Below, in pieces: positions 2-62,486 of a stretch of 64,000 nucleotides of DNA. Both the position numbers and the translations under genes were made by a program. Position 1 is the stretch's first letter. Every line of letters starts with the position of its first letter. This DNA comes from a virus. Where the stretch lies: the IMG/VR virus record IMGVR_UViG_3300030098_006058, positions 25,109-89,108 of that record, one strand, 5' to 3'. The notes beneath the pieces are model-generated. The model was given only the letters and a program-made list of their open reading frames with translations. It was not told the DNA's origin and did no database searches.

Positions 2-3000
2 GATTTAGAATGGGATTTTGATACTGCAAGTCCAACTTTATATGCACCTGTTTATGATCCCATAAATGGAATGGGTATTAGATATTATGTATTAAATGCT
101 TCTAATGTTCCTTCTAGTAGTGGAGATGTAGCTAAGTCTTTCCAAAGTACTGGAACATGGGGAGATAGAACTATTTGGTCTTTATTTAGAGATCCATATG
201 ACGATAAAATTTATGTAGCAACTCCAAATAAAATTGGTAGTACAGGAGGATATAGTGCAAATTATAATGATACTTATGGTATAACACAGGTTTCTGCTAT
301 AACAAATTCAAGTAGTCCTGCTGGTACTGCAGAGTTTGTAGATTCAGTAGTAACTACAGGTACTAAATTAGTTAGAAAAGGTTTAGGTACAAGAGCAATA
401 AGAGATGAAGCATCTGCATCATCTGGTAAATATAATTTAACTCCATGTGATACATTTAAAGAATATGTATTAGATTCAGATGGATTTATTTGGAGTATAG
501 ACGGAGCACTTGATGCTACGAAAATTGCTGATGTAAGTAGTATTACAAATAGAAAAAATATAGCGGTTCAAAAGGAAACTGGATTTATATATTTATTAGC
601 GGGTACAGGAGCTACTCAAGCTATCTATAAAGTAGACCCTATTTCAGGATCTGTAGCTTCAGGAGTAGCAATTTCTGGAGCAGGTATTACAGGTTTTAAT
701 AGTATTTGTAGTAAAGATGGAGATGCTCTTAAATTATATGCAGTTATAGAAATAGCTGGTCCGCATTATAATTATGCAGAAATAGTAATTGCTACAGGAG
801 TAGCTACTAAAACTGCAGGTAATACATCTCATGTTGCAGTAGATACTGCATATATAGGTACTACATTATATATGGCATCTGGAGATGATCTATATAAAAA
901 TACAGGACCTGGTACATGGGCTACAGTAGGAGCTAATGGTCTAAGTACAAACTATGAAGGTTTAGCTACAGATGATACAACTTTATATGGTTATATAGCT
1001 GGAAAGAGATATACTATTAATACAACTAGTGGAGCAGCAACATTAGGAAAAAGTATAACAACAAATGGTGGAACAGCTACTTGGAATTATACAATTACAG
1101 GTGCTGGCCAAATTAATTATGCAGGAACTCTTAATCCTCTTATTACTTCTGATGGTACTATTCCTCCATTTGTAGGAGATATAATTAGAGTTGAAAACTT
1201 TGCAGGATGTTGGACTGTTAGTACAGCTTCTTCAGGAACTGCTCAAGTAGTTGGGAATGTTTTACAAAGTTATTCAGATTGTGATTCTTGTACTTTAGTT
1301 GATAGTAATTTAGAGTGTAAATTACTTGTTGATTGTTGTACAACAGGGGCCGGAATACCTCAAAAAGTAGTTGGAACTACAGATGATTCTACAATAGTAG
1401 TTGGTAATGTATATGAAATTACAGGTAATGCTACAACTTCAGATCAATTAAATAGATGTGTTAAAGCTGTTTCTCCTGATTCTGATTTATATGTTACTTT
1501 TTATAATGGAGAAGTAGGTAGTATAGATTTAACTACCGGTATTATTACACAGAATACAGGTCTTCCAAATACTATGGGTATTACTTTTGATAGTAATGGA
1601 AATGGTTTAACATTACAAGAAGATGGAAAAATTAGTTTAGTTAAACCTTCTGGTTTTGCTAATGCTATAGAAGTTAATGCTAGTGCAGTTTCCATGAATA
1701 AAGCTATTACTGTAGCGGATGATGGTACTATATATGCAGCAGGAGATGTTTCTGGTGTAACAAAATTACAAAGTATAACTTATGATAATAATGCTGATAC
1801 CATAACTTTTGGTTCTACATTAGTTAATGCTAGTGTTCTTCTTACAGGAGATATGGCTGTAGGTCCTGATACATTATTATATTGTACAGGAGATGCGGCT
1901 CCTTCTGGTGCATTAGATCCAAATGATCTATTTACTTTAGATACAACTTCAGCTACTAATACTACTATTGCAAGTTTAACTACTACATTAAGTTTAACAA
2001 CTCATCAAATAGTTAAAGGTATATCTTTTGTTAAAGATGTATGTAAAGTATTAGTTTGGGATTCTGCGTCTAATGGTTTAACATTATTTGATGTTAATCA
2101 TCTTAGTGGAGTTTTAATAAGTAGTTTATCTTTACAACATCCAGATGGTAGTTCTGCTTTTGAAATTCCTCCTACAAGTATAGCTTATAATAATCCTTGT
2201 AAATACCATACTGAAAGTTCATTTAAAGTAACTTCTTATGGAAATTGTTCTGATTGTGCTGCATCTGATACATCAAAAAAATGTAAATATAAATTAATTA
2301 ACTGTAAAAACGGTTTAGTTAAATATACTGAAGTAGATTTATCAGCAGATGTTGGTAAAATAATCTCTTTAAATGAAGTAGGATTATATAAATGTTATAC
2401 TGTAGAACATACATATTCTGATTCTGTTACAGCTGATGTAACTAAATTAGCAGGTTATACAGATTGTACTGATTGTGAAAATAGTGAAAATTCTATTTTT
2501 AGATTATTGAAATGTACTGATGAAACTTCAGATCCAAAATATACAACTGAAGATTTAACTCCAGGTATATCTGGATATGTTGGTAAAGTAGCTATTCTAG
2601 AAGGAGAATATTATGGAAGAATAGTAGATAGTTTAGGAACTTCTGCTCATTCATTATTAACTACTGCAGTAACTATTGTTAATCATACTTCAAAATGTAG
2701 TGATGCTAATTTCTATACTCGAATAACTGCATGCAATGATTCAACAAGAATTATTGATATTGACTATACCTTAAGTCCAAGTATTCATTCTTATATAGGT
2801 ACTTCTAAAGGTTTAGCTATAAATAATCTAGGAAATAAAGAAGATGAAGTTTGTTGGACAGCAGCTTCTTGGATTGAAGGTCCAACTCCTTATGTATATC
2901 AAAATATTACTGTAACTGCTTTTGCTGATGATTGTGATACTTGTGTTCAAACTGCATTAGCACCACCACCATCACAGATTGCTTTATCATCTTGTTGTAA

Positions 3001-28068: not shown

Positions 28069-31000
28069 ATGAGTGAGAAAACATCAGCATTAAAGGGTAT
28101 ATTTTCAAATACCTCTACAGAATTAGATCCGGGTACGAATTTACCTAAGAGCCCTACTAAAGGTCCTAACGACCCTCCTATTGCTCCTCCCAAAGGTGCT
28201 AAAAGGTATAATAGAGGAGGATCTAATTCTAATTTATGGGGAGATGGTGTAAATAGTGTATCTGATATATTTAAAATCCCTTCTGAAACAGGTAAGATGG
28301 GAACTCCCCCAACAATATTTCCAGGTCCTAGTTATTACGATTTACCGGATGTAGATTTTGATATATACGATAGAGGGACTACTCTTCAACGAAGAGCTAG
28401 TAGGCAAGGTGTAGGAGAACAAATACTAGGAGCTTTGAATCAAGCAGTATTTGGAGAAGTTTTAGGAGGAACTATTGAAGCTCTGGGAGCCTTAGCAGAT
28501 TTTGCATGGGGTGGAATAGGTGAAACGTATGGTAACTGGATGACTGAATTAGGATCTGATATAAGAAATTTTACAAAAGAGATTACTCCTATTTATCAAA
28601 TGTATCCAGGAATGGCTTGGAATCCGTCTGATTCTGGATGGTGGGCTCAAAATGCAGTATCTGTAGCATCTACACTATCATTACTTATTCCTGCTAGAGG
28701 AGTTCAAGTAGCGGGAGGAAAACTTATGATGGGAATTGCTAAGGGTACAAAGAAAATTAATAAGGCTAAAAAAGGAACTAAACTTCATAACTTCGCTAAA
28801 AAAATTGAAAATGCAGCGCACGGTACAAAATGGACTAGAGCTGCAGGTACGGCTGTATTAGGAGGTACTGCTAGTAGATTTATGGAAAATTATAGAGAAG
28901 CTGCAGAAACTGGAGTACATTCTCTTGAAAAAAATCTAAAATTTTTATCTGATCCGGAAAATCTAGAAGAGTTTTTAAATAGTGAAGAAGGTCAGATATT
29001 TTTAGAAGAAACAGGAATTACAAGAAATGATCCTAATATCGTAACTAAAGCTGCACAATATGCTTCCGGAAAAGCTGCATCGCATGCATTTAAAATAGAT
29101 TGGGCTAACTGGGCTTTTGATGTATTTCAATACGGTCTTATGTTTTCTCCTGGGTTATTTGGAAAGATAGGAACACGTACCGGAAAAGGTTCTTCTGCTG
29201 CAACGAAAGCTCAACAAGGATTTTTAAAGGCTCCAAAAAAAGTTAAATCACCTAGATTTGGAAGACTAGGTGCTGCATTTAATTGGACTGTTAAAAAAGG
29301 TAAACCTTTTGCTAAATGGGCTGCATGGTCTGCTACAGAGGGTGTAGAAGAGATGGTTAACTATATTGGTATGCAAGAAGGTATTCGAAGAGGTGATTTA
29401 ATATTAGGTAATACAGGATATACTAATAAAGAATATATAGAATCTGATGACTTTTTAGGACGTTTAGATCACTATATGGAACAAGGTGGATTTTGGACAT
29501 CCGCTATGTGGGGTGCGATAGGTGGAGGTATATTTACCGGGGTTGCAGGTATTAGAAATAGAAATTATCATAAAAAATTAGCAGAACAAAAAGTACAAGA
29601 AATTGGAGAAAGAACAGCGTTAATTACTGAATTAATGCAAGAAAGACAAAGATATGAAGCAATAGGAGATATTGACGGTATGAGAAAGATCGATCAACAA
29701 CTTGCTATTGAATTGGCGTTAAAAGCTGCAGCTGTAGGAAATGTAGACTTATTATTAGAAATGATTAATGACCCTATGATGGATGAAGCTTTAGAGTCAG
29801 GGGGAATGAAAAAAGAAGATATACAAGCTAAAAAGAAAGAAATAATAGAAACTGTTGAGCTAGTTGAGAAATTATATAATTCTAGAATGAATACCCTAAC
29901 AGGGGATAAATATAGTGATGCATTAGGAGCATCTATTGTTAGAATGGAAATGAATATTTCTATGTATCAAAATCTTATTGATGAGATAAATAAACGTATA
30001 GAAGCAGGAGAAACATCAGATGTTGTTTTACAAGATGGTTTTAAAATTGGGTCTAATACTAAAAATAGATATGATTTACAAAGAAAAATACAAGAAGTAA
30101 ATAAAGTACTTCAAATGTTTGAACAAATTAGGTCTGGTCTAGAAAAAGCAAATGCTGAAGCCGGAACTTCTGAAAAAGATAAACAACAAAATAGTTTAGC
30201 TTTAGAAGAAACTAATAAGCAGATAGAAAAATATAAACAACAATTATCAGAGCTTGAAAAGAAATCAACTCTTGCTAAAAAAGATTCTCAAGATAATTAT
30301 GATGCGGGAGTATATAAACAAGAAGAAGACTTTTTAAAGAAAGTCCAAGAGATGGATCAAAGAGGGCTAGCAGAAAAGAAAGCTTTATATACAAATTTAC
30401 GGGATTTAAGTTGGGAACAACTCAATAGATTATTATCAGGAGAAACAACATTAATAGATAAAGATAAAAAAGAAGTAGGAAAAGCAAGTGTTCCAAAAAC
30501 TGAACAAGAGGTTATAGAAGATTCTTTAGGGACAGGTACAGAACAGGCTAAACAATCAGCTCAAACAAGAGCAAAAATACAAGATTTAAGAAACTTTATA
30601 ATAAAAAATAAACCAAGTTTAAAAGCTCTTGATGATTTTATTGCACAATATCCTACTGATCAAGAGTTTCAAAGAGTAGCCGCATTAGCTAGAGAAGCTT
30701 ATGCGCAATATAAAAATGAACAAGATTTTCGTGATAAAAATGACAGCTTTAGATCTAAATTAAAGAAAGTTATTAAAAAGGAAACAGACGAAATAAAAGA
30801 TTATATTGATGAAGCTAATAAGAAATTTTTAGAAGAATTAGATAAACTTACTAAACCTAAAACATCTATGAAAGATGTACGTAAAGGTGTTGAAACAGAG
30901 ATTTGGTATAGAAATTGGATAGAAAATGGAGCTCTTAGAACTTATGGTATTAAAGAATCTCAGGATTATTTAATTAATGAATTATTTGATGAATTTACAC

Positions 31001-59778: not shown

Positions 59779-59974
59779 TTCTAATTTTTAAATCTTCTGC
59801 GTATTTTTCAACGCATGCTAAACATATATTACTTCGTGTACTTATTATAATAGATCCCATACCAACTCGTATAGATTTATTACTCCACACTGCTAAGTGA
59901 AATTTATTTGGAGGTATCTTAGCCTTACACTCCCCGCATTTTCGCCTGCGTAAGGCTTGATCTAATACCCACAT
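59711..59974 (-). CDS. Small Zn-finger protein ending in DLPF
   Basis: CGEC...CLAC; C-terminal RDLPF; overlaps the polA start. Confidence 0.55.
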   Translation of the reverse strand: MWVLDQALRRRKCGECKAKIPPNKFHLAVWSNKSIRVGMGSIIISTRSNICLACVEKYAEDLKIRNDEQDKINNKSKPNNRDRDLPF

Positions 59975-59985
59975 ATTTATTTCGT

Positions 59986-60054
59986 TTAATTTGTAATTTT
60001 ACATAAGATTAAAAATCCTATGATATATAATAATATTAATCCTAATATCTCCAT
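59986..60054 (-). CDS. Candidate 22-aa single-TM peptide
   Basis: MEILGLILLYIIGFLILCKITN*, with an A-rich leader. Confidence 0.35.
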   Translation of the reverse strand: MEILGLILLYIIGFLILCKITN

Positions 60055-60108
60055 CTAAATTTTTTATTATTTAATACTAATCTGCTAATCTGGATTTATT
60101 ATGATTAA

Positions 60109-60233
60109 AATGTTTTAGGATAGCTAGGAGTCAAACCTAGAAATAGGGTTCTATTTCGGATAACTAGCACATCCTCTCAGCATATCTCGATAATATACTA
60201 AACATATCTCAGCCATGTCTATCCTAAAACATT
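60109..60233 (-). ncRNA. tRNA-like structured RNA (aberrant or pseudo-tRNA)
   Basis: 15-bp terminal stem AATGTTTTAGGATAG/CTATCCTAAAACATT; T-arm-like CTAGG-TTTGACT-CCTAG; TGGCTGAG D-like segment; extra hairpins. Confidence 0.5.
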
Positions 60234-60268
60234 AAGATAAATTGGTGCTAAGAATATACAGTATAAGA

Positions 60269-60454
60269 TTATTTTAATGGTCCATGTATTGATTTAATAT
60301 ATGTACCATTTCTACTATCCCATACTACCCTGCCATTTGAATGTAATTTTGTTCTGTCTTTTAATGATTTCATACGCTCTTTGTAGTCTTTTTTAGACTC
60401 ACCTGGTTGACGTTTACCTTTCATATTAATATTATAAAATGCTGATTCACTCAT
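60269..60454 (-). CDS. Small basic hypothetical protein
   Basis: 61 aa, KRQPGESKKDYKER; overlaps the upstream ORF stop. Confidence 0.55.
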   Translation of the reverse strand: MSESAFYNINMKGKRQPGESKKDYKERMKSLKDRTKLHSNGRVVWDSRNGTYIKSIHGPLK

Positions 60455-60699
60455 ATTGTTCCTATTATTAAACAGGTAATAGCAGCTTTTAAACTGGTTA
60501 ATCTATCATCCATAATATTAATATCTTCTTTACTTGCTGTTTCTTTAACACTCTCTCTTAATGCTTCTACTTCAACAAGTTTAGCATCTAATACCTCAAC
60601 AGCATAAGGTAAATGTGTTTTTCTTTTCCTTATATCAGGAGTTAAATTCATAAGATATTCATATTTCTTATGTATTTCTTCATTAATATTTATTTTCAT
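60451..60699 (-). CDS. Small helical hypothetical protein
   Basis: 82-aa ORF with A-rich leader. Confidence 0.55.
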   Translation of the reverse strand: MKININEEIHKKYEYLMNLTPDIRKRKTHLPYAVEVLDAKLVEVEALRESVKETASKEDINIMDDRLTSLKAAITCLIIGTI

Positions 60700-60818
60700 A
60701 ATTATTTAATTTTATTTTAACATTATATTAACATTAGATATGTATATTGTCTTCAATGAAAATAGACATATCTAAATTTATTTACATTATCATGATGATA
60801 ATAGTATTTGCTTTAAGC

Positions 60819-60960
60819 GTATAAGCCTAGTGATACTTTCAATAATAATGGGTTTAACACTCTAGCTCTTTAGCACTGTGTTACATCGTCCGGTGGACTA
60901 CTTTCCCGCGATAAGCTGGCCGGCCTATCTTTATTATCTAATAATATCACTGGCTCATAC
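60819..60960 (-). ncRNA. Multibranch structured RNA
   Basis: 16-bp closing stem GTATGAGCCAGTGATA/TATCACT(A)GGCTTATAC; inner GATAGG/CTTATC, GTCC/GGAC, TAACAC/GTGTTA. Confidence 0.55.
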
Positions 60961-61071
60961 ATAAACAATAGCAAGATCAGAACAGTCCATGGTTATTCTG
61001 CTAATGCGATCCATAATATAATCCCAACTTACATCCCTAATTAAAGAGAAATCTTCCGAAAATATATTAAT

Positions 61072-61250
61072 TAGTTCTATACAGAACTAGAGGACCCATT
61101 AGACCAGCCTAACAACGTGGTGTTATCGTAAATATCCATTCGGATAAATAGGATAATCAGCACTACATGGTGACGTGCTTTACAAGACCCTGTTAATATC
61201 CCTGCTGGGAGTGGTGTATGAGGATTTACTCTCATACCTAATGCAGCCTC
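61072..61250 (-). ncRNA. Nested multibranch structured RNA (about 160-180 nt)
   Basis: GAGG..CATTAG/CTAATG..CCTC, GTATGAG/CTCATAC, CCAGC/GCTGG, TAACAG/TTGTTA, TTGTAAA/TTTACGA, GCAC/GTGC, TATCC/GGATA, trailing TAGTTCT/AGAACTA. Confidence 0.55.
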
Positions 61251-61293
61251 ACGGTTCAACACTTGCTATTATTTATAATGATTTATACAAAAA

Positions 61294-61375
61294 AACTATG
61301 TGAACAGGAAATGGTATTTATTCACACAAAGTATAACAGGTAGTTAATAATTAAATACAACCTGCTCACATAGTT
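61294..61375 (-). ncRNA. Long stem element followed by U-tract
   Basis: AACTATGTGAGCAGG/CCTGTTCACATAGTT (15 bp, one G:U on minus strand), then a T-run. Confidence 0.5.
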
Positions 61376-61380
61376 ATAGG

Positions 61381-61481
61381 ATAGGGATATTATGACCGCA
61401 CAAAAAAGAAGCTGTAGCCAAACAATAAAAGCTAGAACTAAAAACACCGGTTGAGAGCATTACTGTATTCTCTATCCCTAT
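61381..61481 (-). ncRNA. Structured element closed by ATAGGGATA/TATCCCTAT
   Basis: 9-bp perfect closing stem; inner GAGA/TCTC, ACCG/CGGT, TAGC/GCTA. Confidence 0.4.
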
Positions 61482-61495
61482 TATAATTGCCAGCA

Positions 61496-61550
61496 GGGAG
61501 AATTTTGTGTTCAGAACGACCCGGTATGTTCTTATTAACTCATCTCCCCC
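61496..61550 (-). ncRNA. Extended bulged hairpin just 3' of the tmRNA-like RNA
   Basis: GGGAGA/TCTCCC, TGAGTT/AACACA, AGAAC/GTTCT. Confidence 0.45.
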
Positions 61551-61568
61551 TTTTAAACTCTGGACTTG

Positions 61569-61642
61569 TGGAGGTGGCCGGAATCGAACCGACGTTCTTA
61601 AGCAGTATTCATCATACTGCGAAAGCAAACCACTGCACCCCC
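61569..61642 (-). ncRNA. Minimal tmRNA-like (tRNA-like-domain-only) RNA with alanine identity
   Basis: GGGGGTG-CAGTGGTTTGCTTTC-GCAGTAT-GATGA-ATACTGC-TTAAGAAC-GTCGG-TTCGATT-CCGGC-CACCTCC-A: G3:U70, A73, canonical T-arm, no canonical D-stem or anticodon loop. Confidence 0.65.
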
Positions 61643-61838
61643 ATGTGGTAAAACGAATAATTGTTGTAGCACCTTCTATTATTAATTTAATTAACTTAAA
61701 CTGTCTTACCACTTGATTTTTTCATACCAATAATACCATTCTAATTCATTTTTCCGCTTCATAGATTGTATTTGTTGATAAATAGCAAAGTCTAGTGCTT
61801 TTCTTTTGCTATATAGTCTTATTATCCAATAAAGTATT

Positions 61839-62120
61839 TTAGATGTCTTCATACTTATTTAATGTACAAAACATGCCAATACCTCTTGCATATTCTCCTT
61901 TTATTACTTCAGTTAATTTAAATAGAGTTATACCTACTATTACTGAGAAATAAAGGATTATTAAGTCAAATATGACTATTTTTGCTATTCCTACATCCAT
62001 TACATAATAAGGTAATAGAAACATAAAGAATAGACTTGCTAATATGAATACTACTTTTAATAAGCATTCAACCCAAAATAACATTAGTTTTTTCATTTTT
62101 TTTCTTTTTAAATTAAACAT
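61839..62120 (-). CDS. Small two-TM membrane protein
   Basis: Two long hydrophobic segments. Confidence 0.5.
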   Translation of the reverse strand: MFNLKRKKMKKLMLFWVECLLKVVFILASLFFMFLLPYYVMDVGIAKIVIFDLIILYFSVIVGITLFKLTEVIKGEYARGIGMFCTLNKYEDI

Positions 62121-62144
62121 TTAACTTGATTCTTATTTTAAAAA

Positions 62145-62172
62145 TGAACAGTTTGTCTTCATGTTCAGGAAT
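62145..62172 (-). repeat. Intergenic mini-pseudoknot motif, copy 1
   Basis: ATTCCTGAACATGAAGACAAACTGTTCA. Confidence 0.6.
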
Positions 62173-62177
62173 AGATA

Positions 62178-62486
62178 TTAAAAATAAGGATTATATCCTT
62201 CATTCTCTAAATCTTCTAGATCAGGATGATAATCTGCTTTACTTTTTAACCATTCATACATTTCTTTCTTCAGTAAATCTACTGAATATGTACCGTAAAG
62301 TAATATCATCTCTAATTGTTCAAGATTTCTTTCACGGTCAGCATAAACAGCCATAAAGTCTAGATTATGTACCTTTCTAATCATTAACAATATGTTTTGT
62401 AAATGATTATCATCTAAATCTGTGATAAGAATATTCTTACCTTGTTGTGTCTTCCAGTATACTGGAAAGTTAAGTTCTTTTTGCAT
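62178..62486 (-). CDS. Hypothetical phage early protein
   Basis: WKTQQGKNILITDLDDNHLQNI, a pattern common in small phage proteins. Confidence 0.6.
   Translation of the reverse strand: MQKELNFPVYWKTQQGKNILITDLDDNHLQNILLMIRKVHNLDFMAVYADRERNLEQLEMILLYGTYSVDLLKKEMYEWLKSKADYHPDLEDLENEGYNPYF

Follow-up and report, generated by a model that had tools for sequence, protein, structure and literature searches.

A 74-nt tmRNA-like gene consisting only of a tRNA-like domain (TLD) lies at 61569–61642 on the minus strand of the window, the term used here for the whole 64,000-nt stretch of DNA analysed, which makes up the final 64 kb of a viral record of 89,108 bp rated as complete. The phage genome has a G+C content of ~30%, and two of its ORFs are 5711 and 3279 aa long. 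The closest matches of its DNA polymerase are Crassvirales references, at 28–30% identity, and the phage is therefore considered a distant, crAss-like one. The RNA sequencing runs containing parts of the region are marine metatranscriptomes. Neither SmpB (PF01668) nor a tyrosine integrase (PF00589) was detected in the genome, in which the only tRNA gene is that for Met. PHROGs searches with nine flanking ORFs identified only the DNA polymerase and one weak match of unknown function, and zero matches were obtained by blastn of 701 nt around the element against cultured phages. The element heads a ~1.5-kb same-strand stretch of structured non-coding RNA. A sigma-70 scan detected six promoter-like sites against 3.4 expected and no terminator, a result that carries no information in the case of a crAss-like phage.

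Read on the minus strand, the element extends from G1 at 61642 to the discriminator A73 at 61569. The 5′ strand of the acceptor stem (G1–G7, 61636–61642) pairs at 7/7 positions with 61570–61576, G3 pairing with U70, and is followed by a D-loop analogue of 10 unpaired nt (61626–61635), in which UGGUUUG is common to a sister copy in a related phage and to bacterial tmRNA 5′ ends. In place of the mRNA-like domain there is a P2-like arm (61597–61625), delimited from the fold and the sister comparison, composed of a 3-bp helix (CUU/AAG), a 2×2 internal loop UC/UU, a perfect 7-bp helix and the 5-nt loop GAUGA. A connector, AAC (61594–61596), leads into the T-arm (61577–61593), a 5-bp stem with one U-G pair and the loop UUCGAUU, after which the 3′ strand of the acceptor stem (61570–61576), A73 and the trailer CAA (61566–61568), instead of an encoded CCA, complete the sequence. 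As the tRNA-Met gene is likewise without CCA, the CAA trailer is normal for this phage and implies CCA addition by the host. This reading bears out what the first-pass annotation had proposed for the strand, namely the G3:U70 wobble with A73, a D region lacking a stem, a 7-bp hairpin without a U33 anticodon loop, and CAA rather than CCA after A73. The short connector it described before the T-arm is also present, but as AAC and not GAAC, because the parse adds the 3-bp outer helix to the arm. Thermodynamic folding agrees, as the RNAfold centroid (−27.8 kcal/mol) is exactly the parsed layout and the minimum free energy of −27.9 kcal/mol corresponds to z = −2.66, an equally good value being reached by 3/200 shuffles. 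The hairpin loop is not of the U33 type; opened to 7 nt, it has G at position 33.

Standard tools do not report the element: ARAGORN at default settings calls neither a tRNA nor a tmRNA in the window, and Rfam at gathering thresholds gives zero matches for it. In E-value mode the top Rfam family is tmRNA, RF00023, which aligns from its first position to its last but skips 320 in the centre, although the score of 33.8 bits, or 42.3 in a whole-genome search, is below the gathering score of 47. Other members of the clan, tRNA included, score lower than tmRNA on the element and are suppressed. Two bacterial genomes each contain one 76-nt sequence to which RF00023 gives 30.7 bits; the element scores only modestly above these, and the score alone is weak. 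A canonical tmRNA was rejected, the mRNA-like domain, resume codon and tag frame being absent and the score below gathering level. The lack of a nearby tag frame noted at first pass holds, with zero AA-stop frames on the minus strand of 59900–61720. A two-piece, permuted tmRNA (RF04321) was rejected at 21.8 bits against 47 and with no tag frame, and a downstream GGGGGAG considered as a permuted-tmRNA part is without the UGG D-analogue.

Two outcomes that the first-pass annotation had set against its own proposal were also negative. The element is not a canonical tRNA, since it has no D-stem, no 7-nt anticodon loop with U33 and no default ARAGORN call; the call obtained when thresholds are relaxed to 80%, 'tRNA-His (atg)', is unspecific, being one of 51 made across a genome with one real tRNA gene. 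Nor is it an attP-type fragment of a host ssrA gene, since both tmRNA halves, the 5′ half included, are present and the genome has no PF00589 match.

The two ends of the element correspond closely to those of full-length bacterial tmRNAs. A scan for its last 27 bases, with two positions left open, in one genome per prokaryote species detected 30 loci, every one with A where the window has G; 22 are full-length tmRNAs with tags according to ARAGORN, for example ANTELAMAA. The 3′ end is identical to full-length bacterial tmRNAs at 26 of 27 bases, and at the 5′ end 15 of the first 16 bases are identical to the 10 tmRNAs whose ends were compared. Ten further tmRNAs, from the family of one such genome, have the same ends. 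Bacterial tmRNAs with the element's T-arm are distributed over several phyla (Acidobacteriota, Bacteriovoracia, one MAG labelled Flavobacteriaceae and others). Because both ends match full-length tmRNAs, the element amounts to a real tmRNA's first ~16 and last ~30 bases with a hairpin closing them. Compared with RF00023 tmRNA, it is nearly the same in its first 16 and last ~27 bases and has identical Ala identity elements, whereas ~290 nt are absent, namely the four pseudoknots, the P2 extension, the resume codon and the tag frame. The identification as a tmRNA tRNA-like domain made at first pass is upheld by these matches and by a covariance model, built with the element left out, that groups it with the corresponding RNA of mycobacteriophage DS6A.

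'Mycobacterium phage DS6A (TLD only)' is listed among tmRNAs by Hudson, Lau & Williams 2014, in the part of PMC4131195 concerned. The relevant section of that paper, citing Mao 2009, describes the DS6A-type TLD-only RNA as strongly inhibiting E. coli tmRNA, chargeable or not, and the corresponding sections of PMC4131195 and PMC11915505 propose that inhibition perhaps occurs by titration of SmpB. The 2025 tmRNA database, in its section on such genes, repeats the DS6A case and adds CDS-less plastid genes (PMC11915505). A literature search found neither a paper on a broader phage class nor one on crAss-like carriers, DS6A being the only printed case found. The DS6A element, which is unannotated in the GenBank record, was located at 28478–28557 (+) of JN698994 (locus L213), between gp33 and gp34, and scores 58.4–58.9 bits with the models that give the window element 50.1–52.3. 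DS6A also encodes an RtcB-like RNA ligase (gp76). Because the DS6A TLD-only tmRNA was already published, the window element is not a new class but a new, divergent member in a crAss-like phage.

Both RNAs are phage-encoded, ~75–80 nt in length, and consist of an acceptor stem with G3:U70 and A73, a D-analogue, a T-arm and a short hairpin, with no tag frame. They differ in detail. In DS6A the D-analogue is 13–14 nt long with CGAC at its end, the 3′ connector is GCAC, and an inner hairpin is nested behind an A-rich stretch. The D-analogue of the window element has 10 nt and no GA, and its arm is bipartite, with the UC/UU internal loop and GAUGA loop. The lineages are unrelated, DS6A being a temperate actinophage whose element has 70% G+C and the window belonging to a marine crAss-like phage of ~30% G+C. 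Reduction to the tRNA-like domain is shared with the CDS-less organellar tmRNAs of jakobid mitochondria and the ~65-bp Mallomonadaceae plastid genes, as described in the section of PMC11915505 devoted to them; these are vertically inherited, use imported SmpB and presumably act in rescue. A further comparison is with a 71-nt D-stem-less tRNA-Ala(UGC) of marine phages, which has a similar length, a GGGG...CUCCA acceptor and a reduced D-region. These genes have a 7-nt CUUGCAA anticodon loop, lie in tRNA arrays and receive many ARAGORN tRNA-Ala calls, whereas the window element lacks both an anticodon loop and tRNA neighbours. Loose-pattern matches of this 71-nt type were observed in the large phage tRNA arrays of L022, L039, L046, L053, L081, L097, L108, L114 and others.

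A loose TLD pattern (GGGG, UGG at 11–13, a 30–60-nt body, GGUUCGAnUCC and CUCCA) with a short body is present in at least 120 viral contigs. Among the matches listed, 96 were unique and 68 remained after removal of tRNA-like loci, those with fewer than 7/7 acceptor pairs and duplicates; 27 loci were removed as tRNA-like on the basis of ARAGORN tRNA calls or the same 67–71-nt types. Nine more with an unfitting middle part were left out by eye (L008, L028, L030, L035, L045, L062, L083, L100 and L120). The final set, among the matches listed, consists of 59 loci plus the window, and the alignment has 60 sequences, the window element and its sister copy being added to 58 unique ones. As GGGG, UGG, GGUUCGAnUCC and CUCCA are predetermined by the pattern and acceptor pairing by the filter, no evidence can be drawn from those columns; neither constrained P2, the inner hairpin or T-stem pairs 1–3.

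In this 60-sequence alignment, 86.4% of cells pair in the four-helix structure against 63.1% in shuffles, and the covariation score of 0.555, against 0.142 in shuffles, was reached by 0/500 of them. Sliding the pair partners reduced pairing to 41–54%. Changes on both sides were observed in 7/7 P2 pairs and 3/5 T-stem pairs, and T-stem pairs 1–3 are 100% paired. The leave-out covariance model R2, from whose building the window and its sister were excluded, gives DS6A 58.9 bits, the window element 50.1 (E about 7e-8) and the sister copy in the related phage G001 39.2. The best ordinary phage tRNA scores 38.4 with R2, and other tRNA-level matches, which occur in tRNA-rich loci, ≤31.6. A second family model, R1, gives the window element 52.3 bits.

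Lengths among the matches listed are 65–82 nt, the window element having 74. The GA of the 5′ nGAy motif at the P2 base, carried also by bacterial tmRNAs, is present in 43 of 58 members among the matches listed and absent in the window element, which does have the AC before the T-arm observed in 45 of those 58. Trailers after the discriminator in the 59 loci among the matches listed are CCA (23), CAA (10), CTA (9) and CGA (2); a CNA trailer thus occurs in 44 of the 59, C74 and A76 tending to be kept where CCA is not encoded. Neighbouring ORFs in these 59 loci are mostly on the element's strand (42/55 upstream, 38/51 downstream), and no phage-integrase family was detected at E up to 1e-5 in the 106 ORFs flanking the 59 members, again among the matches listed. 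In three G+C-rich viral contigs the mini-tmRNA occupies the short gap that separates the prohead protease gene (Peptidase_S78) from the major capsid gene (L003 4155–4233, L004 4915–4994 and L089 561–639), on the same strand as both and starting 7–8 nt past the protease stop. The tag-less mini-tmRNA is a common kind in uncultured phages. The P2-arm type of the window was found in only two lineages, the G000 (window) and G001 types, among the searches made. An IMG/VR search with a pattern for the subfamily arm gave 28 stretches, 26 of them new loci; none scored with R1, and all 26 were chance-like on reading.

Close relatives of the phage rarely carry the gene. R1 was applied to 80 loci around related polymerase genes of 48–99% identity, and the element was detected in one, a near-identical contig (52.3 bits), with nine other matches at ≤25.3 bits. 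Among 20 related records, 10 of them ≥90% complete, the only strong match is in G001 (45.3 bits). The Crassvirales search proposed at first pass recovered the DS6A control at 58.9 bits, but in four reference Crassvirales genomes gave nothing above tRNA level. In relatives with 78–80% polymerase identity, the non-coding sequence 61377–60107 is kept at 73–90% nucleotide identity and nothing matches the window from 61378 upward. With so few relatives carrying it, the gene is accessory and patchy. The near-identical contig, L001, has 44 differing positions in 1 kb and none in the element, an absence of little weight as the differences are clustered.

The sister copy in G001 (C1:7355–7430, equivalent to L203 1501–1576, minus strand) is 76 nt in length and lies ~20 kb from the G001 polymerase gene, on the opposite strand and in a locus different from that of the window. 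Comparison after cutting both copies into the same 15 segments indicates that 21 of 22 pairs are kept and one is broken, with zero single-sided changes. Nine pairs are changed on both sides, 3/3 in the outer arm helix, 3/7 in the inner helix, 2/5 in the T-stem and 1/7 in the acceptor stem, and UGGUUUG, the internal loop UC/UU and GAUG of the hairpin loop are unchanged. A metagenome scan detected one identical copy of each type and one G001-type variant, L297, which differs from G001 at 5 of 76 positions, all structure-compatible: in the acceptor stem A-U became G-C by a double change, in the T-stem A-U became G-U, and one change each lies at an already mismatched pair and in the connector. The nine compensatory changes, combined with these five, show selection on the fold. 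From the positions of the copies it is seen that, among close relatives, the gene changes its locus.

The setting of the sister copies is unusual in that the G001 element lies in frame and stop-free at approximately residues 461–485 of a 760-aa ORF, the frame measuring 858 aa from stop to stop, or 855 aa as an ORF counted from a start codon. A Pfam SLT domain occupies residues 554–641 of the protein. The L297 element (~1108–1183, minus strand) is likewise in frame, in a 393-aa ORF homologous to the G001 protein before, across and after the element, and the 403 nt upstream of it are only 67% identical to G001. Since the DNA is only about 32% G+C, the stop-free frame over the sister element is not chance. 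In the sister copies in the SLT-domain gene, L296 included, the substitutions fit the RNA fold and the open frame together. The 760-aa protein has no match in G000, and in five related records only its SLT part was matched, in two of the five.

Other structured RNAs were observed around the element. Expression was investigated in five marine metatranscriptome runs from two studies, each containing ~1/10 of the words of 60000–62200, four of which were mapped. Logan contigs from these four cover only 60878–61260 and two short, low-identity pieces near 62077–62116; the TLD is outside this coverage and contigs cannot show small RNAs, so they say nothing on its transcription. Word depth over 60878–61260 (−) reaches 71.5, and three contigs end at 61257–61260. 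The segment overlaps two 'multibranch' RNAs described at first pass, is ~78% conserved in relatives and matches no Rfam family; it probably corresponds to a stable RNA ~335–380 nt long that is abundant. A second, larger tRNA-like element at 60109–60233 (−), just upstream of the polymerase gene, is kept in relatives of 62–80% polymerase identity (L127 5460–5562, L128 5468–5571, L129, L131, L132, L137 and L139) and is matched weakly (19–25 bits) by the mini-tmRNA model, which recognises its arm, T-arm and UGG..UCGA motif; G3:U70 is absent. A bulged hairpin at 61496–61550 (−), 20 nt downstream of the mini-tmRNA, has the same helices in L001, 8/8 differences falling at 61533–61539 and 61507–61509, which are read as loops.

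The anatomy of the element suggests that the mini-tmRNA acts as a decoy for SmpB, AlaRS and EF-Tu that blocks host trans-translation, a reading to which we assign a probability of roughly 0.55. The RNA would be transcribed together with minus-strand early genes and excised in the manner of a tRNA, the 5′ end being generated by RNase P and the 3′ end by trimming, with CCA supplied by the host CCA-adding enzyme. AlaRS would charge it with alanine through G3:U70 and A73, and SmpB and EF-Tu would bind the charged RNA. Competition with host tmRNA for SmpB and stalled ribosomes would follow, and ssrA tagging and tag-directed proteolysis may be switched off during infection. Since the RNA has no message, the resume codon, tag frame and pseudoknots being absent, it would support no tagging itself. 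SmpB recognition is less certain than for DS6A because the GA of nGAy is absent. The idea is one already published for the DS6A-type molecule and is what we infer for the window's RNA; the inhibition, as described in the pertinent parts of PMC4131195 and PMC11915505, was observed in E. coli with a molecule other than that of the window. Against the decoy stands the dispensability of the gene, given its rarity in relatives.

The placement of sister copies inside an ORF and of other members in the protease-capsid gap hints at a cis role in the mRNA, and because of these settings a cis-acting tRNA-like processing signal is kept as the main rival, although we consider it unlikely. RNase P and 3′ enzymes would cut at the element, splitting or stabilising the transcript, with the small RNA a by-product; it is similarly unlikely, but conceivable, that at the in-ORF copies such a cut would make the upstream message non-stop. 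The position at the head of a ~1.5-kb structured non-coding RNA, the in-frame G001-type copies within a conserved SLT-domain gene, the protease-capsid placements of L003, L004 and L089 and the predominantly same-strand neighbours (42/55 up, 38/51 down, among the matches listed) are all consistent with this. A plain processing signal, however, has no need of G3:U70, A73 or a tmRNA-type D-analogue, and G000 and G001 have UGGUUUG and the P2 layout in common (GGGG and CUCCA being pattern-fixed). CCA is encoded in 23 of 59 members among the matches listed, and the DS6A-type RNA works in trans according to the section of PMC4131195 that treats it.

Tag-less ribosome rescue, in which the charged RNA and SmpB would take over the nascent chain on stalled ribosomes for untagged release of phage proteins made from cut or truncated mRNAs, is somewhat harder to accept. 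It would require the same anatomy as a decoy, and in the passage of PMC11915505 on CDS-less organellar tmRNAs those of jakobid mitochondria and some plastids are presumed to assist where mRNAs are incomplete. Without a resume or stop codon, however, the peptidyl-RNA would have no built-in termination route, no short frame is conserved, stop triplets falling in different frames in the G000 and G001 copies, and the published test, as reported in that part of PMC4131195, demonstrated inhibition and not rescue.

More doubtful again is a dual use confined to the G000/G001 subfamily, which may go beyond a plain SmpB decoy and could be a movable cassette: removal of the RNA from the mRNA by RNase P would divide the gene into a non-stop upstream message and a downstream one, and the released RNA would block tagging of the non-stop product. 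It is raised because the loops are constant amid changing helices and the sister copies are in frame within a conserved SLT-domain gene of virion or lysis type, 5/5 substitutions fitting both constraints. If true, the cassette would be a self-contained way of deliberately making a truncated protein.

That the RNA is instead a decoy or sponge for another binder of tRNA or tmRNA shapes, be it a defence nuclease, RNase R or a phage protein binding GAUG and UC/UU, we regard as improbable. The P2-arm loops, (near-)identical between G000 and G001 while the surrounding helices changed, suggest sequence-specific recognition, and the loop-bearing part of P2 has no counterpart in the main family. The arm is nevertheless restricted to two lineages, and no conserved partner gene lies beside the element, the G000 and G001 loci being different.

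A decaying remnant or recombination site without RNA function, such as an attP-like host ssrA copy, would account for the patchiness among close relatives but is very improbable in view of the presence of both tmRNA halves and not the 3′ end alone, the absence of integrase from the genome and from the 106 family-flanking ORFs among the matches listed, and the nine compensatory changes against G001 with five structure-compatible ones in L297. An aberrant D-arm-less tRNA decoding with AUG in the hairpin loop as anticodon, as the 80%-threshold 'tRNA-His (atg)' call and the 71-nt D-stem-less tRNA-Ala genes of marine phages might suggest, is scarcely credible when the same relaxed run yields 51 'genes' in a one-tRNA genome, the 7-bp stem closes the loop to 5 nt with G rather than U at 33 if opened to 7, and a tRNA with Ala identity but a His anticodon would cause miscoding.

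Trans-translation, a drug target, operates in nearly all bacteria. Genes of this kind are missed by standard tools, ARAGORN and the curated Rfam thresholds being blank here and the DS6A site unannotated. The class is now extended to a marine crAss-like phage, in which a short divergent variant with conserved loops could map the needs of SmpB or another partner. A phage RNA that switches off trans-translation, which the decoy reading predicts, would be a compact natural inhibitor of the process.
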